DNA from: an uncultured Chloroflexia bacterium
Lineage (GTDB): Bacteria; Chloroflexota; Limnocylindria; Limnocylindrales; CSP1-4
DNA: 64,000 bases
Assembly: GCA_963780425.1 (NCBI GenBank)
Contig: CAWABZ010000013.1
Coordinates: 68,644 to 132,643, forward strand
Direction of reading: 5' to 3'
Part shown: one piece after another, positions 13,306 through 18,743 of the stretch
Numbering within the stretch: position 1 is the stretch's first letter
Layout: the number at the start of each line of letters is the position of its first letter
The notes under the pieces: generated by a model
Databases searched by the model: none
Seen by the model: the letters and a program-made list of their open reading frames with translations, nothing else
Told to the model about the DNA's origin: nothing
Translations under genes and position numbers: made by a program

Positions 13306-14628
13306 ATGTATGACCGACTCCGGGCCTGGCTCGACCGCTGGGGCCCCATCCTCCCGCTGCTCGTCGCCGAGTTCATCGTCTGGCTGGGCTTCGGTAGCCT
13401 GCTGCCCGTCCTGCCGATCTACTTCCACGAGCAGGGCCTCGATCTGGCGACGCTCGGGCTGGTGATCGCGGCGTGGCCGGCTGCCCGACTGGTCAGCGAG
13501 CCGATCTTCGGGTGGCTGGCCGATCGCACAGCCCGGGTTCCCCTGATGGTCATCGGGCTGGTCGCGACAGGCGTGTTCGGCGCGTTGCCGTTGGTCTGGA
13601 CCGGCCCGGTCGCGTTCCTCGTGCTCCGCGCCGGCGCCGGTTTGGGGTCGGCGATGTACGACCCCGCCGCGCGCGGTTTCCTGACCGATGCCACGCCGCC
13701 CGAGCGTCGTGGCGAGGCGTTCGGCCTGTACGGCGCCGCCCAGATGGGCGGGCTGCTGATCGGCCCGTCGATCGGCGCATTCGGGGCGGGGCAGTTCGGC
13801 GGCATCGGCTTCGTGTTCGTGTTCAGCGCCGTCGCCGCGATCGTCGCGGCGGTGGCGATCGCGCTCCGTGTCCGCGAGGAGGGTCCAGCCCACAAGGCCG
13901 GCGCATCGCCCTGGTCCGACCGGACCACGCTGCCGCCCGACTCACCCTACGTCGAGGGCCGGGCCGCCGCGGCATTGGCGGCCGACGCCACGTCAACCGC
14001 GGACCGGAGCCCCTCCGATGGCCGTGCGATGCGGCTCCTGAACCGCGGCCTGATCGCCGCGATCATCCTGAACGTCGGCGGCTACTACGGCGGCGGCACG
14101 TACGAGGTGATCTGGAGCCTCTTCCTCCAGGGACTCGGCGCGGATCTGGCGCTCATCGGCCTGACATTCGCGATGTTCGGCCTGCCGGTGCTGGTCCTCT
14201 CGCCGTTCGCGGGGCGCCTGGTCGACCGGCGCGGCTCTTTTGCGTTCATCGTCCTCGGGATGGTCCTGCCGGCGGTGACCGGCATCCTGTACACGTTCAT
14301 GCGGGACCCATCCTTTGCCGTGCCGTTGATCCTGATCGAGGCGACCGGGTTCGCATTCCTGAACCCCGCGCTGTACGCGGTCGTCGCGGCGAGCTCGCCG
14401 CCCGGCCGTTCGTCGACGGCACAGGGACTGTTCGGCGCGGCCGGCACGCTCGGGTTCATCGTGGCGTCGGTGACGGCGGGCCTGCTCGCGGAGCGGAACA
14501 TCCTGTTCCCGTTCTATGCGTTCAGTGGGGTGATGCTGGTGACGCTGCTCATCGCGGTCGTCGTGGGCGGGCCGGCGCTCCACGGACGGGTCGCCCAGCC
14601 GTCCCAGGCACCGGCCACCGCGGGCTGA
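13306..14628 (+). CDS. MFS transporter (12 TM)
   Basis: The ATG at 13306 lies inside the 801-aa composite ORF. Motifs GWLADRTARVPLMVIG and GAGLGSAMYDPAARGF are present; hydrophobic throughout. Confidence 0.9.
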   Translation: MYDRLRAWLDRWGPILPLLVAEFIVWLGFGSLLPVLPIYFHEQGLDLATLGLVIAAWPAARLVSEPIFGWLADRTARVPLMVIGLVATGVFGALPLVWTGPVAFLVLRAGAGLGSAMYDPAARGFLTDATPPERRGEAFGLYGAAQMGGLLIGPSIGAFGAGQFGGIGFVFVFSAVAAIVAAVAIALRVREEGPAHKAGASPWSDRTTLPPDSPYVEGRAAAALAADATSTADRSPSDGRAMRLLNRGLIAAIILNVGGYYGGGTYEVIWSLFLQGLGADLALIGLTFAMFGLPVLVLSPFAGRLVDRRGSFAFIVLGMVLPAVTGILYTFMRDPSFAVPLILIEATGFAFLNPALYAVVAASSPPGRSSTAQGLFGAAGTLGFIVASVTAGLLAERNILFPFYAFSGVMLVTLLIAVVVGGPALHGRVAQPSQAPATAG

Positions 14629-14679
14629 GGCGCGCCGAGCGCATTTGACCGATTCCGGGCCCGCCCCTATCATTCGCGG

Positions 14680-14755
14680 TCGCGGGGTGGAGCAGCGGCA
14701 GCTCGTCGGGCTCATAACCCGAAGGTCAAGGGTTCGAATCCCTTCCCCGCAACCA
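14680..14755 (+). tRNA. initiator tRNA-Met (anticodon CAT), CCA encoded
   Basis: Folded by hand. The acceptor stem cgcgggg/ccccgca has a C1:A72 mismatch. D stem is gagc/gctc. The anticodon stem tcggg/cccga contains three G:C pairs, and the loop is ctCATaa. T stem is aaggg/ccctt with loop ttcgaat. Confidence 0.9.
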
Positions 14756-14824: not shown

Positions 14825-16126
14825 TCAGGGCGCCAGTCGTTGCCACGCCGGTTGGCCATTATCCCCAGGCCATGGCGCGACGGCAGTCGCGCCGGTGAGC
14901 GGATCGACGGTCAGGCGGTTGGCGGCCCGACCCTTCTGCGTCGAAGTACACGCCGAATATCGACCCATCGTCGGGCGCCCAGACCCAGCGGGCGCACAGG
15001 TCGCCGAGGGAATCGCTTGGCCCGCTCGGACACTGGATCTCGACGTCGGGACCGACCCCGTCGACCGGGATCACCGCGGCACGATGGTCCGAGCCGTCTG
15101 GCGAGAAGATCCTCGTGATGATCAGGCGTGTCCCATCGTTCGACCAGACCGCGTCGCCGTCGGAGACCGCATCCGGGTGGTGGTCCACAGCGAACGTCGC
15201 CCGTGCCGTCCGCCGAGATGACGTGGGTTCGCCAGACGTCCTCGGCATCCATCGATACATACAGGATGCGAGAGCCATCCGGCGACCACGATCCGCCCCC
15301 GATCGCTACCAGTCGTCGGCTCGACGATCGTTCGAACGACGGACGTCGCGATGTCGACTGCAAACAGGCCTGTCACCCCGTCGTCGGCTCGATGGCCGGT
15401 GAAGAGGATCTCAGATCCGTTTGGCGGGCGGAACGACGGCGCCTCGACACTCATCCCGACGTCGATCGTTCGTATGGCCCCCGAGCCATCAGTCGGGATG
15501 AGGAGCATGGAAAAGGTGTTGTCGACCAAAGCCGTCGCCAGGATCGAGCGCCCGTCTGGCGAGAAGCTCCACGCGTCGTGGTACGGGCCGAATTCATCGA
15601 GCAGCTCTGGCGTGACCTGGATCATGTTCGTGCCGTCGGCATTCGCAACGAACAGCAGGGCGTTGCGACCCTCGCCCGTGCGGGCGAACGCAAAGCGCGT
15701 TCCATCCCTGGAGAAGATCGGACGCGCATCGAATGTGGACCCCGTGACCAGGGCCGCCGTCTGGCCGGTCACTGGATCCATCGAGTAGATGTCGCCCTCG
15801 GCGTCGTACGCGATCAACCCGTTGGCCGCCCGCCCGTATGGCGCGGGCAGACGCGGTCGTGAGCCGACGTACGCGGCGACCATCGCCGCAAGCAGGACGA
15901 CGAGCAGCGCGAAGACAGCGAGCCGGCGCCATGGCAACCGAGTCGTCGGGGTCCGCGCAGTCACAAGTTCCATGGGGAGCCACCTTTCGATGGATGCCCA
16001 GGCGGGTCGCTGACGCGTGCCGGCGGTCCGCCCGAGGATGTCTGTGAGGTAATCGGGCGTTCGCGGGTCAGCCAGGTCGGTCAGGGCGACGGGCAACTGA
16101 CGTTCGAAGGTATCGATCGGCATCAT
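14825..16126 (-). pseudogene. sigma-partner membrane protein (putative anti-sigma N-terminus + TM + PD40/TolB-like beta-propeller), 3 frame breaks as assembled
   Basis: The protein is spread over ORFs 15122..16126, 14911..15363 and 14859..15278, plus a hand-translated tail GRAANRLTVDPLTGATAVAPWPGDNGQPAWQRLAP* ending at 14825. Repeats SFSPDG, SWSPDG and WSNDG are present. It is colinear with the paralogue at 16787-18106. Confidence 0.7.
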
Positions 16127-16686
16127 GCGAACCGCCCTTCCGGCACGGCGATCGGATCCACGGCGTCATCGTTCGCAACGGTCGTGCGGAGCACGCCGAG
16201 CGCGCGGTGCAGCCGGGATTTCGCGGTGCCCAGCGGGATGCCCATGCAGGACGCGACGTCCGGCAGTGGCATGCCGAGGAAGTAGTGCAGGACGACGACC
16301 GCACGCCAGCCGGGCTCGAGGGTCCGGAGCGCGCGATCGAGCAGGTCGCGATCCACGACGCCACCGCTGAAATCGGCGGTCGACGGGACGTGGAGCGGAG
16401 TCAGCTCCACCTCGATCGCACGGCGCTTGCGGCGCCGGATCAGGTCGAGGCAGGCATTGACGAGCAGTCGATGGAGCCAGGCGTCGAACCGGTCCACGTC
16501 GCGCAACGTGGGGAGGTCGCGCCAGCTCCGGACGAGAGCCTCCTGGACAGCGTCCCGCGCAAGGTCGGTATCCCGGAGGATCAGGCGTGCGGCCGCGTCC
16601 AGGCGCGCGACGGCCGCGCCGGCCAGCATCGCGAAGGCGTCATGATCGCCTCGCTGCGCTCGCTCGACGAGACCTCGCTGGTCCAC
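16123..16686 (-). CDS. ECF (group 4) RNA polymerase sigma factor
   Basis: Region 2 reads DAVQEALVRSWRDL...FDAWLHRLLVNACLDLIRRR. Region 4 reads VVVLHYFLGMPLPDVASCMGIPLGTAKSRLHRAL. GTG start; the stop overlaps the partner start (ATGA). Confidence 0.9.
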   Translation of the reverse strand: MDQRGLVERAQRGDHDAFAMLAGAAVARLDAAARLILRDTDLARDAVQEALVRSWRDLPTLRDVDRFDAWLHRLLVNACLDLIRRRKRRAIEVELTPLHVPSTADFSGGVVDRDLLDRALRTLEPGWRAVVVLHYFLGMPLPDVASCMGIPLGTAKSRLHRALGVLRTTVANDDAVDPIAVPEGRFA

Positions 16687-16734
16687 GGTCGCCTCAGGGT
16701 GTCGGCACGACCGAGGTGGCCGTGCTCGACATCC

Positions 16735-16766
16735 TAGGGCGTCATCGATGCCGGAATTCGTTCCCG
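16735..16766 (-). promoter_or_regulatory. candidate ECF-type promoter, GGGAAC-N18-CGCC
   Basis: The minus strand reads cacGGGAACgaattccggcatcgatgaCGCCctagg, about 50 nt upstream of the sigma GTG. The same GAAC-N17-CGCC..ctag arrangement occurs upstream of the paralogous sigma gene. Confidence 0.3.
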
Positions 16767-16786
16767 TGTATCGATGGGTCAGTGAG

Positions 16787-18106
16787 TCACGGGGCTCGGC
16801 GCTGCCAGGTGGGAGTGCCAGTCGCCGTCCAGGGAGCCGGCCGGACCTTGCCGGTCAGTGGGTCGGCCAGGAACTGCGGTAAGGGCCGGCCGCTTGCGTC
16901 CGACGTGGTACCGAGGAGGACCGAGTCGTCGGGTGACCAGATCCAGTCGGCATTGCAAGCGTCTGGCGAAGCGAACGAAGCGCATTCGATGTCGATGCCG
17001 ACGCTACTGCCATCGGCCGGGACGATGGCGGACCGGATGATGTCGCCGTCTGCGCCGACGTACCACCGATTGACGATCAATCGGGTTCCGTCATTCGACC
17101 AGCCGCCGCCACCTCCGTCCGCGAAGCTGTCCGGATGAGCGTCGACCAGGACGTCGCCGGTCCCGTCGGCTGACATGACGTGGGTCCGCAACGATATCCT
17201 CGTCGTCGTTGGGATCGAAGACGGCATACGCGATCCGCGTCCCGTCGGGGGACCACGCCGCGACGGAGACGTCTGCCGTGGCCGACGGGGCGATGATCGT
17301 CCGGACATCACCGGTCGCGGGGTCGAATGCGTACAGGCCACGAGTCGTCGGCTCCGGGTTCGATCCCCTGGAACATGATCTCGGAGCCGTCCGGGCGGTA
17401 TCGCGGTGGTTCGTCATTCAACGTTGCCCCGACATCGAAGAACACCGGTGGGCCGCTGCCGTCGCTCGCCACGACCATGATCGTGGGTCCTGTTGGCGAG
17501 TGGCCAACGCGACGATCGAGCGGCCGTCGGGCGAGAAGCTCCAGGCGGCGAGACCGCTGAGCGGCTCGGGCGTGACCTGGACGAGCCCACGTCCGTCGTC
17601 CCTGGACGACGAACAGGAACCCGGGCCGGACGCCGCCATCGCCCTCGACCTTGCGTTCGAAGGCGACTCGAGTGCCGTCCAGCGAGTAGACGGGTTGACC
17701 GTCGACCTCCGGGCCGGCCACGATCCCGGTCGCCTTGCCGGTCACTGGGATCTGCGGTGTAGATGTCGCCGTCCTGGCCAAAGGCGATCGACCCGTTCGC
17801 TGCCGGACCGAACGGGACCGCCGGAACCGCCGCTGCGAGCCCGCGTAGAACGCGAGCATCGCCGCGAGCAGGGCTGCCAGGAGCGCGAAGCACACCGACG
17901 ATCCGCCATGGGACGCGCGGTGCGCCAGGCAACGCCTTGGTCGCGAGGTCCATCGGAAGCCACCTTTCAGGGAACGTCCAGGCGGGTCGCTGCCGCACGC
18001 GGGCGATCTGCTGGACGAGGTCATCTCGATAGTCGGGCGTCCCCTGCAGGTACAGGTCGGCGAGGAGCGCCGGCAGGTCATGCTCGAAGCGTCGCGGCGA
18101 GGTCAT
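16787..18106 (-). pseudogene. paralogous sigma-partner membrane beta-propeller protein, about 7 frame breaks as assembled
   Basis: A colinear protein can be traced only by hopping between ORFs 17414..18106, 17308..18081, 17418..17639, 17091..17417 and 16787..17341. Examples along the path are ...ERWLPM..., CFALLAALLAAML, VTGKATGIVAGPEV, AAWSFSPDGRS, VAAWSPDGTR and GGWSNDGTRL. Confidence 0.7.
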
Positions 18107-18667
18107 GCCAGCTGTCCTCCTGCGACGGCGACCGGGACGGGTTCGGGCTCGGCGGTCACGGTCGTCCGCATCGCGGCGAGCGCGTAGTGCAGGCGTGACT
18201 TGGCCGTCCCGTGCGGGATGCCCAGGGATGCCGCCACTTCTGGTAACGGCATCCCCAGGAGGTAGTGCAATGCGACGACCGCGCGGTGCCCGGGTGCGAG
18301 ACCCGCGAGGGCCTTGTCGAGCAGCTCACGGTCGGCGAGCGGCGCCTGCGACGTCGTCTGCCATCGGCGCGTCGATCGGCGTGAGCTCGACCTCGATGAC
18401 CCGACGCTTGCGACGCCGGACGAGATCGAGACAGGCATTGACGAGCAGGCGATGGAGCCAGGCGTCGAAACGGTCGGGATCGCGGAGACCCGGCAGGTCG
18501 CGCCACGCTCGGATGAGTGTCTCCTGGACCGCGTCGCGCGCGAGCTCCGAGTCCCGGAGGATCAGGCGGGCGGCCGCGTCCAGCCGCGCGAGGTGGACGT
18601 CGATGAGCGAGGTGAAGGCGTCATGCTCGCCCCGCCTCGCTCGTTCGACGAGTCCTCGCTGGTCCAC
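18103..18667 (-). pseudogene. ECF sigma factor paralogue, one frame break near 18345-18360 as assembled
   Basis: The first 97 aa are 79/97 identical to the sigma at 16123-16686 (counted by eye). Region 4 (VVALHYLLGMPLPEVAASLGIPHGTAKSRLHYAL) is in the other frame (ORF 18103..18438). Confidence 0.75.
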
Positions 18668-18711
18668 GGTCGCCTCTGATGCGGCACGGCCTTGGCGGTC
18701 GTGCTCGCTAG

Positions 18712-18743
18712 GGTATGGCGTCCGCGTCCAGGGAAAGGTTCAG
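18712..18743 (-). promoter_or_regulatory. candidate ECF-type promoter, TGAAC-N17-CGCC
   Basis: The minus strand reads cgacTGAACctttccctggacgcggaCGCCataccctag, about 50 nt upstream of the sigma GTG at 18667. Confidence 0.3.

Follow-up and report, generated by a model that had tools for sequence, protein, structure and literature searches.

Tandem ECF sigma/membrane β-propeller cassettes in a Limnocylindria-type Chloroflexota bacterium, with frame breaks most likely due to consensus errors

Related systems and organisation of the locus

In the class I anti-sigma/ECF pairs RseA/sigmaE, RsiW/sigmaW and RskA/SigK, the partner gene lies immediately downstream of the ECF sigma gene and is translationally coupled to it. 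The partner protein starts with a cytoplasmic helical segment, crosses the membrane with one transmembrane (TM) helix and has its sensor domain on the extracytoplasmic side, and the pair is preceded by an ECF-type promoter for autoregulation (GAAC at -35, CG-rich -10). The cassette described here resembles these systems in all of these features, its cytoplasmic helices being predicted at low confidence and its sensor domain and promoter putative. Besides these similarities, there are differences, as its partner protein has no sequence or fold match to known anti-sigma domains, a cytoplasmic part of only ~56-65 residues and a PD40 β-propeller as sensor, and its sigma binding is putative. To a specialist the cassette, a stress-signalling pair of the ordinary kind, is unsurprising, because no ECF layout is commoner than a sigma factor paired with a single-pass protein whose sequence is not recognised.

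Two other systems are related in part. TolB of the Tol-Pal system shares the PD40 repeats, and TolB structures (E ~1e-12) are the best Foldseek matches of the partner, together with S9-peptidase propellers; however, the partner lacks the TolB N-terminal α/β domain, is anchored by an N-terminal TM helix and is encoded in Chloroflexota, beside a sigma gene. Meanwhile, cellulolytic clostridia likewise encode many paralogous pairs of sigma factor and membrane sensor in one genome (SigI/RsgI), and every pair has its own extracellular domain for sensing. SigI is a non-ECF sigma factor and the RsgI sensor domains are carbohydrate-binding modules, whereas all cassette paralogues keep one propeller type and nearly one promoter and leader.

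Within the window (the whole 64-kb stretch of DNA analysed), the minus strand at 14825-18743 holds two head-to-tail units, each formed by an ECF sigma gene and a gene for a single-pass membrane TolB-like β-propeller:

16123..16686, minus strand: gene for ECF sigma factor A; intact ORF of 187 aa that starts with GTG
14825..16126, minus strand: partner A; architecture as partner B, 3 frame breaks, no in-frame stop
18103..18667, minus strand: gene for ECF sigma factor B; starts with GTG, frame broken by one additional base near 18340, where the sigma2-sigma4 linker is encoded
16787..18106, minus strand: partner B; cytoplasmic N-terminus, one TM helix and PD40/TolB-like β-propeller, 7 frame breaks, no in-frame stop

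This arrangement of two paralogous units agrees in all coordinates and features with the original prediction, including the ATGA overlap of sigma stop and partner start, present at 16123-16126 (unit A) and 18103-18106 (unit B). The sigma factors are identical at 79 of their first 97 residues, a count made earlier by eye and exact on recount, and 69% identical over their full length, while the partners share 48% of their amino acids. It is fairly likely that the two units are tandem paralogues of long standing, representing a two-gene signalling cassette that is typical of Limnocylindria-type Chloroflexota, and that the 11 breaks interrupting them are indel errors of the consensus.

The cassette family

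Among 104 checkable partner genes (78 loci), 103 are directly preceded by a sigma gene, with an overlap of exactly 4 nt in 96 of these, and 22 of the 78 loci carry 2-4 tandem cassettes. The cassette forms a large, uncharacterised and unnamed lineage-specific family, for which clustering at 50% identity gives about 1,400 clusters, and is the dominant expanded ECF module of an abundant, uncultured soil lineage. The texts searched gave no description of an ECF group whose anti-sigma factor has PD40 repeats or a propeller.

Sigma factors and upstream regions

Both sigma factors (187/188 aa) possess PF04542 (Sigma70_r2) and PF08281 (Sigma70_r4_2), as expected for ECF (group IV) proteins, which consist of sigma2 and sigma4 alone in about 170-200 aa. 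The TIGR02937 (sigma70-ECF) score is 61.3 bits, compared to a cutoff of 42.9, and that of TIGR02983 (SigE-fam_strep) is 109.7 bits, under its cutoff of 141.55. Among solved structures, SigE, SigW, SigH, SigL and sigmaE match best, with E ~1e-14. Upstream of each sigma gene, a promoter-like motif is followed by a leader stem-loop:

18714..18741, minus strand: promoter-like motif of sigma B, GAACC-N17-CGCCATA (GAAC-N17-CGCC)
18681..18708, minus strand: leader stem-loop of sigma B, GCGAGCACGACC...GGCCGTGCCGC, between promoter-like motif and RBS; -16.3 kcal/mol
16735..16763, minus strand: promoter-like motif of sigma A, GGAACG-N-CGCCCTA (GAAC-N18-CGCC)
16700..16731, minus strand: leader stem-loop of sigma A, UGUCGAGCACGGCC...GGUCGUGCCGACA; -21.8 kcal/mol, z = -2.35

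The GAAC-N17/18-CGCC motifs that had been proposed upstream of both sigma genes are present, with the N17 spacer at sigma B and N18 at sigma A, and the strict form occurs in the 64-kb window only at these two sites. Moreover, 85 of 96 homologous upstream segments contain the motif, whereas it occurs in 2.7% of segments drawn at random from these loci. Across the 96 loci, 90% of the core cells of the stem-loop are paired, and one pair covaries between AU and GC; an Rfam search of the leader region left the stem-loop unmatched and returned only tRNA.

Partner proteins and the anti-sigma question

When 35 sequences of the family are aligned, the four parts earlier attributed to the partners stand out as conserved columns: the RQRPAW..ERWLPM N-terminus, the TM helix, the PD40 repeats and a DP.TG..W..WQR.AP tail. 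The propeller and the TM helix are confidently predicted by AF2, and PD40 matches partner B at 48 bits. As for TIGR02800 (TolB), the score is 58.4 bits compared to a cutoff of 343, the alignment being limited to the propeller, which is below the level of a TolB assignment. No Peptidase_S9 match was found in the partner, whose chain ends with the closing strand of the propeller at residue ~431, and the C-terminal α/β-hydrolase domain that defines an S9 peptidase is missing. The extracytoplasmic PD40 propeller is probably the sensor. The regions preceding it in partner A are as follows:

15929..16126, minus strand: residues 1-66 of partner A, a cytoplasmic and conserved segment that is the candidate sigma-binding module; four short predicted helices
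15863..15931, minus strand: TM helix of partner A, about residues 66-88; AF2 helix with pLDDT 72-94, preceded by a basic PWRR motif

The N-terminal segment follows the consensus ..RFER.LP..L.DLA...TPDY.DD.L..TA..RQRPAW.F.ERWLPM, with P12, P24, Y26, Q39, R40, W43, R48, W49 and P51 invariant in the 35-sequence alignment. Class I anti-sigma domains are built of four helices, a bundle of three on sigma4 and a fourth on sigma2. In the segment, AF2 places helices at 4-19, 25-36, 42-49 and 52-55 with low confidence (pLDDT 45-62, pTM 0.25), and Foldseek with this model of the segment alone gave no matches. No Cys occurs in residues 1-66 of either partner or in the family consensus, so the Hx3Cx2C zinc motif is absent. 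The segment matched no anti-sigma family (zf-HC2, RskA, RseA_N and others) in Pfam or NCBIfam at E <= 10, as seen in the profile search that had been proposed as a check, and its profile had 0 matches in the PDB at the same threshold; the "non-ZAS" label given earlier is, then, literally true. Such a non-zinc, unmatched segment is not unusual and is the norm among putative anti-sigma factors, since the class I anti-sigma domains without a zinc motif amount to about 44% (PMC7406223), and among putative anti-sigma factors with a gene at +1 the majority lack a match to any Pfam anti-sigma domain (PMC7826278).

Regarding gene context, class I anti-sigma domains are encoded beside the ECF gene, usually at +1 and often with one TM helix. 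The usual test for calling a protein a putative anti-sigma factor is that it crosses the membrane once and is encoded at +1 (PMC7826278), and the partner, with its one TM helix, directly adjoins the ECF gene at +1. This context, together with conservation, indicates that the ~65 cytoplasmic N-terminal residues are probably the sigma-binding (anti-sigma) module. The partner could instead be a co-transcribed, sigma-dependent envelope protein, such as a TolB-like or peptidase-like effector, with the sigma factor controlled otherwise, as suggested by the source annotations (Tol component or dipeptidyl peptidase), by an N-terminal segment unlike any known anti-sigma domain and by the ~56 residues before the TM helix, which are short compared to the class I mean of 101 +/- 33 residues (PMC7406223). 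However, an effector role appears rather unlikely, considering that the partner terminates after the propeller without a catalytic peptidase domain, that its position behind the sigma gene, usually with the 4-nt overlap, is almost invariable and fits the anti-sigma criterion, and that the cytoplasmic segment is conserved at least as well as the propeller (mean pairwise identity of 55% and 49%, respectively, and 78% in the segment core).

With the partner as a probable anti-sigma factor, a mode of action can be proposed, in which the cytoplasmic segment would hold the sigma factor at the membrane in the resting state. A ligand or envelope signal on the propeller would then free it, via conformational change or regulated proteolysis, and the sigma factor, once free, would drive transcription of the operon that encodes it, at the conserved GAAC-N17/18-CGCC(A/G)TA promoter. 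A more far-reaching reading is possible but doubtful: the ~60-residue segment may be an undescribed anti-sigma class, with the leader stem-loop and the near-identical promoters tying the several to many cassettes of a genome into one cross-regulated sensory network specific to Limnocylindria-type Chloroflexota.

Intact relatives and selection

As had been suggested for checking, the orthologous locus was compared in related genomes. Three related Chloroflexota (Limnocylindria-type) assemblies, L001, L002 and L004, carry the tandem pair in the order sigma-partner-sigma-partner with all four genes intact. Sigma A is identical to its L004 ortholog at 179 of 187 residues and sigma B to its intact L004 ortholog at 168 of 187; partner A shares 413 of 431 residues with intact P0001 and 418 of 431 with P0349, and partner B shares 377 of 436 with intact P0095. 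Assemblies from Logan, JGI and ENA also include intact versions of the partners, 431 and 437 aa long, which are 96-97% and 86-87% identical. The broken ORFs are recorded on one NCBI/ENA contig only; an independent assembly from the same strain was sought, and the closest intact partner A, at 97% identity, belongs to a different strain.

Compared to L004, dN/dS is 0.15 for partner A, 0.22 for sigma A, 0.14 for sigma B and 0.31 for partner B, and 0.09-0.23 for the neighbouring genes. The value of partner B (0.39 for residues 130 to end) is the highest of the neighbourhood, an observation that speaks against an artefactual origin of its breaks. When codon changes were assigned to branches with L002 as outgroup, the synonymous:nonsynonymous counts were 9:1, 20:7 and 15:3 on the window branch and 19:7, 13:15 and 19:6 on the intact L004 branch, compared to ~1:2.8 expected under neutrality from N/S site counts. 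Selection on the window branch is not relaxed, its ratios being no worse than those of the intact branch.

Frame breaks and their origin

Aligning the stretch from 6.5 to 28 kb of the window with orthologous proteins in a frameshift-aware manner verified 16 breaks, of which 11 fall within the cassette. In accordance with the earlier counts, sigma B requires one correction (+1 nt at 18340, from alignment to the intact L004 ortholog), partner B seven (~17888, 17822, 17747, 17607, 17494, 17350 and 17201) and partner A three (+4 at ~15305-15308, +1 at 15189 and +1 at 14939), sigma A being intact. A coding-potential HMM gives roughly 5-8 more candidates in the rest of the window, and with these the earlier estimate of 11 of about 21 breaks in 3.9 kb, about half, is right. 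Outside the cassette there are ~10-13 breaks over ~60 kb; since less than one would be expected per 3.9 kb, the clustering in the cassette is not due to chance. Such a local excess, 15-fold, would be equally expected of a dead gene, which counts against an artefact.

Insertions account for about 9 of the 11 breaks in the cassette and lie mostly away from homopolymers, and the same +1 kind of break occurs in the nearby genes for PEP carboxylase (7677), an ABC ATPase (19927) and CtaG (26031, 26158 and 26429). None of the corrected genes, in the cassette or among the neighbours, has an in-frame stop codon. Homopolymer slippage was mostly rejected as a source, a G-run deletion fitting only the 17822 event, and so was programmed frameshifting, as the 11 contexts differ and none is slippery. 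No common sequence or methylation-like motif was evident at the indel sites on inspection. The classic Nanopore error profile consists of homopolymer deletions, and the insertion bias differs from it, again at odds with an artefact.

Most likely the 11 breaks are not biology but indel errors that arose in the consensus when a metagenome was assembled from long reads only; judged from the sequences, they look artefactual, given an insertion-rich spectrum outside homopolymers, affected neighbours and intact orthologs. The nearest relatives are Microflora Danica MAGs, which were assembled from Nanopore data with Flye, followed by a single round of Medaka (PMC12313526). Frame-split copies of the family were counted in 10 of 68 cases in long-read MAGs versus 1 of 38 in short-read MAGs, a difference that is not significant (p = 0.09). 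The concentration of breaks at the cassette would reflect a locally poor consensus, plausibly caused by reads of co-occurring relatives mixed into the polishing pile-up, as the relatives' tract is 90-99% identical over 14.8-17.7 kb.

A real and very recent pseudogenisation, with both partners and sigma B just lost, perhaps as redundant members among many paralogous cassettes, and frameshifts piled up in the dead genes, had been raised as decay in the original prediction and is now disfavoured. It would be in line with the strong clustering of breaks by gene (partner B 7, partner A 3, CtaG 3), the many family paralogues per genome, the local maximum of dN/dS in partner B and the frame-split copies in other MAGs, including a short-read one. 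However, the window-branch ratios indicate purifying selection, seven indels stand against only 7 nonsynonymous codon changes, which is far off known neutral indel:substitution ratios, and the genes are intact in every other assembly. A decaying pseudogene would show dN/dS moving toward 1 and mixed nonsense and deletion lesions, whereas the cassette genes have neither this trend nor nonsense mutations or large deletions. Bacterial pseudogenes have a deletional bias, to which the insertions run opposite, and housekeeping genes carry the same lesions. Decay is, then, distinctly unlikely.

The other option raised earlier, a poor consensus due to collapse or mis-polishing of two similar copies, holds only in its first part. 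The units are paralogous and share a near-identical stretch of ~30 nt around the RBS and start codon, from which a mosaic consensus with indels could be imagined if they had been collapsed or polished with each other's reads. This is nevertheless highly improbable and is refuted in practice by the identity values, because the units are 69% identical in nucleotides over 1.2 kb, their longest exact shared word is 23 nt and the partners are only 48% identical in amino acids. Reads of such divergence do not cross-map, and in L002 and L004 each unit has a separate ortholog with which it is collinear.

As a caution for annotation, the dense frameshifts of long-read-only MAGs can mimic gene decay, and they also yield spurious truncated or "fused" proteins, already present in public protein sets. 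Three sigma-partner fusions considered for single-chain co-folding (P0209, P0247 and P0289) were rejected, as they are themselves frame-shifted artefacts.

Organization of the cassettes and position of the frame breaks

Both cassettes lie in a window of ~70% GC, and the ORF table together with the three-frame translations reproduced exactly what the original prediction had given for them: gene coordinates, number of frame changes, the ATGA at both sigma/partner junctions, and 79 of 97 identical residues at the start of the two sigmas, which are 69% identical overall. The two partners share 48% identity. Break positions come from a purpose-written, frameshift-aware protein-to-DNA alignment against intact homologs, and the frame path of partner B runs 0>1>0>1>2>1>2>0. 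Outside the cassettes, single extra bases interrupt three further genes, with no in-frame stop in any of them.

16123-16686, minus strand: sigma A, uninterrupted, 187 aa
14825-16126, minus strand: partner A, three frame changes, at 15305-15308 (+4), 15189 and 14939
18103-18667, minus strand: sigma B, one frame change, at ~18340
16787-18106, minus strand: partner B, seven frame changes, at ~17888, 17822, 17747, 17607, 17494, 17350 and 17201
7677, plus strand: single extra base in a PEP carboxylase gene (916 aa)
19927, minus strand: single extra base in an ABC-transporter ATPase gene
26031, 26158 and 26429, plus strand: single extra bases, three within 400 bp, in the gene of CtaG (cytochrome oxidase assembly)
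11183, 34369, 36483, 55569, 61196 and 61997 and, less strongly, 40522 and 44508: candidate breaks from the codon-usage HMM

These candidates are same-strand switches of frame, seen by codon usage, at which the upstream frame does not end. Segmentation by the Viterbi path recovered 9 of the 16 breaks that homology confirmed in the 6.5-28 kb region and added ~5-8 candidates elsewhere, so that the earlier estimate of about 21 breaks in the window, half of them in the cassettes, stands. In all three multiply-broken genes (partner A, partner B and CtaG), the shifts add up to a multiple of three, for which the chance is ~1/27, and the last segment is back in the frame of the first.

Sigma factors and their membrane partners

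Sigma70_r2 and Sigma70_r4_2 are present in both sigmas, which also pass the model of the ECF superfamily; their closest solved relatives are generic ECF sigmas (E ~1e-14). PD40 gave the only domain matches in both partners. The partner was modelled with AF2 through an intact ortholog, P0001 (94% identical, 35-sequence alignment), resulting in a confident beta-propeller (pLDDT ~90), a transmembrane helix at residues 66-88 and a low-confidence N-terminal segment of four short helices. Foldseek matched this model to TolB and S9-peptidase propellers; neither the TolB N-terminal domain nor a catalytic domain was found by domain and family-model searches. The conserved tail (..WQR.AP) forms the last beta-strand of the model and thus probably closes the propeller.

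Regarding the N-terminal segment, the candidate anti-sigma module, a search with its 66 residues gave no match to the anti-sigma families of Pfam or NCBIfam, nor to any other entry there, to PDB sequences by profile search or to structures by Foldseek. The zinc anti-sigma signature is absent, as previously noted, and the segment has no cysteine at all.

The layout of the cassette is the commonest one among ECF systems: an ECF sigma, a single-pass membrane protein at position +1 and a promoter of autoregulatory type. Putative anti-sigma factors have been described in 114 of 157 ECF groups, usually at +1 and with one transmembrane helix, and mostly without a match to a Pfam anti-sigma domain (PMC7826278). 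Class I anti-sigma domains are defined by four helices, with a mean of 101 +/- 33 residues, and about 56% of them bear Hx3Cx2C (PMC7406223). Compared with these, the partner segment is shorter, lacks cysteine and has no sequence match; it may belong to class I as a divergent member, be a short class II-like domain or be something new. The cassette itself is real and conserved, an uncharacterised example of a type of system that is well known.

Origin of the frame breaks

The frame breaks of the cassettes are most likely consensus errors, and they are probably not biological, as several independent tests speak against it. The main rival, a real and very recent inactivation of these genes, is unlikely. 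Comparison with the orthologous loci of related assemblies found all four genes intact in L001, L002 and L004, and intact versions also occur in further Logan, JGI and ENA assemblies, where identity reaches 97% for partner A and is 86-87% for partner B; meanwhile, the broken ORFs are on record on a single NCBI/ENA contig. None of the corrected genes contains an in-frame stop, and dN/dS against L004 is 0.15 for partner A, 0.22 for sigma A, 0.14 for sigma B and 0.31 for partner B, compared to 0.09-0.23 for intact neighbours. With codon changes assigned to branches by means of the outgroup L002, synonymous to nonsynonymous ratios on the window branch were 9:1 for partner A, 20:7 for partner B and 15:3 for sigma B, whereas nonsynonymous changes would be in the majority if neutral decay had lasted until seven indels accumulated. 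The intact L004 branch showed 19:7, 13:15 and 19:6, respectively.

The type of break points the same way. Breaks that can be placed exactly by means of the close relatives L004/L003 are for the most part insertions of one base outside homopolymers, whereas bacterial pseudogenes have the opposite bias, towards deletion. PEP carboxylase, the ABC ATPase and CtaG carry +1 events of the same sort. Frame-garbled versions of the family are also common among public predicted proteins, and the apparent sigma-partner fusions or over-long proteins P0209, P0247, P0289 and P0338, from public metagenome gene calls, are frame-shifted read-throughs; therefore, the same type of error is widespread in public protein sets of this lineage. 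Frame-split copies were seen in 10 of 68 cases in long-read MAGs and 1 of 38 in short-read MAGs, which is a trend only (p = 0.09). Long-read MAGs of the Microflora Danica set are the nearest relatives; they were built from Nanopore reads alone with Flye --meta, given one round of Medaka polishing, and checked for Nanopore-associated errors by their own authors (PMC12313526). Thus, of decay and poor consensus, the two readings offered originally, the latter is favoured by intact orthologs, lack of stops, low dN/dS and insertion-type breaks.

The cause proposed for a poor consensus, collapse or mis-polishing of two similar copies, did not hold, because the paralogues share only 69% nucleotide identity and a longest common word of 23 nt. 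Between ~17700 and ~14800, over sigma A, partner A and the C-terminal two-thirds of partner B, the window has 90-99% nucleotide identity with the L004/L003 lineage, compared to ~60-85% in the flanks, with dS of 0.09-0.16 inside and 0.5-1.1 outside. This tract coincides with most of the break cluster, as 7 of 11 breaks lie inside it, in locally divergent patches. It represents either a recent exchange between lineages, by recombination or transfer, or a chimeric consensus with reads of a co-occurring relative; mixed read pile-ups during polishing would account for those seven breaks.

Distribution and genomic context

The partner has more than 1,872 homologs, of ~430 aa each. When only the N-terminal segment served as profile, 1,398 clusters at 50% identity were retrieved; the best 150 all have the architecture of the partner or are fragments thereof. 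Among species-representative genomes, the family occurs almost exclusively in Chloroflexota MAGs that bear the label Limnocylindrales or "uncultured Chloroflexia", and more than one locus is present in several genomes. An ECF sigma gene lies directly upstream in 103 of the 104 copies that could be checked, overlapping by 4 nt in 96.

Tandem arrays of 2-4 cassettes, with a period of ~1.96 kb, occur at 22 of 78 loci (four cassettes in L018 and L028; three in L007, L021, L053, L066 and L076). L001, L002 and L004 keep the sigma-partner-sigma-partner order and the neighbourhood of the window: upstream lie genes of cytochrome oxidase, AhpC and an ABC transporter, and an MFS gene follows downstream. 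Consequently, the tandem pair of the window is an old, conserved arrangement. Between cassette and MFS gene, L004 and L001 have ~0.9 kb of DNA with a PfkB-family kinase gene or fragment; the window has only ~50 bp at this place (14591-14642), adjoining a tRNA-Met gene (14681-14755, plus strand).

Promoter-like motif and leader

The regions upstream of the family sigma genes align well in 96 loci. A -35-like element GAAC(C/G) followed, after 17-18 nt, by a -10-like element CGCC(A/G)TA is present in 85 of these 96, compared to 2.7% of random segments. Downstream, the 96 regions have an inverted repeat, GC(A/G)CG(A/G)CC-N5-GG(C/T)CG(T/C)GC, then the ribosome-binding site GAGGCG and a GTG start (94 of 102). 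Pairing extends to 90% of cells in the core stem, compared to 27-36% in slid controls, and one pair covaries (AU:55 vs GC:23). The stem-loop matched no Rfam family; the repeat may act either as RNA, in the form of a hairpin, or as a DNA operator. The window holds two copies:

18681-18708, minus strand: leader stem-loop, fold of -16.3 kcal/mol
16700-16731, minus strand: leader stem-loop, fold of -21.8 kcal/mol

In the three- and four-cassette arrays, promoter and leader are nearly alike across all cassettes, suggesting possible cross-talk among the paralogous sigmas.
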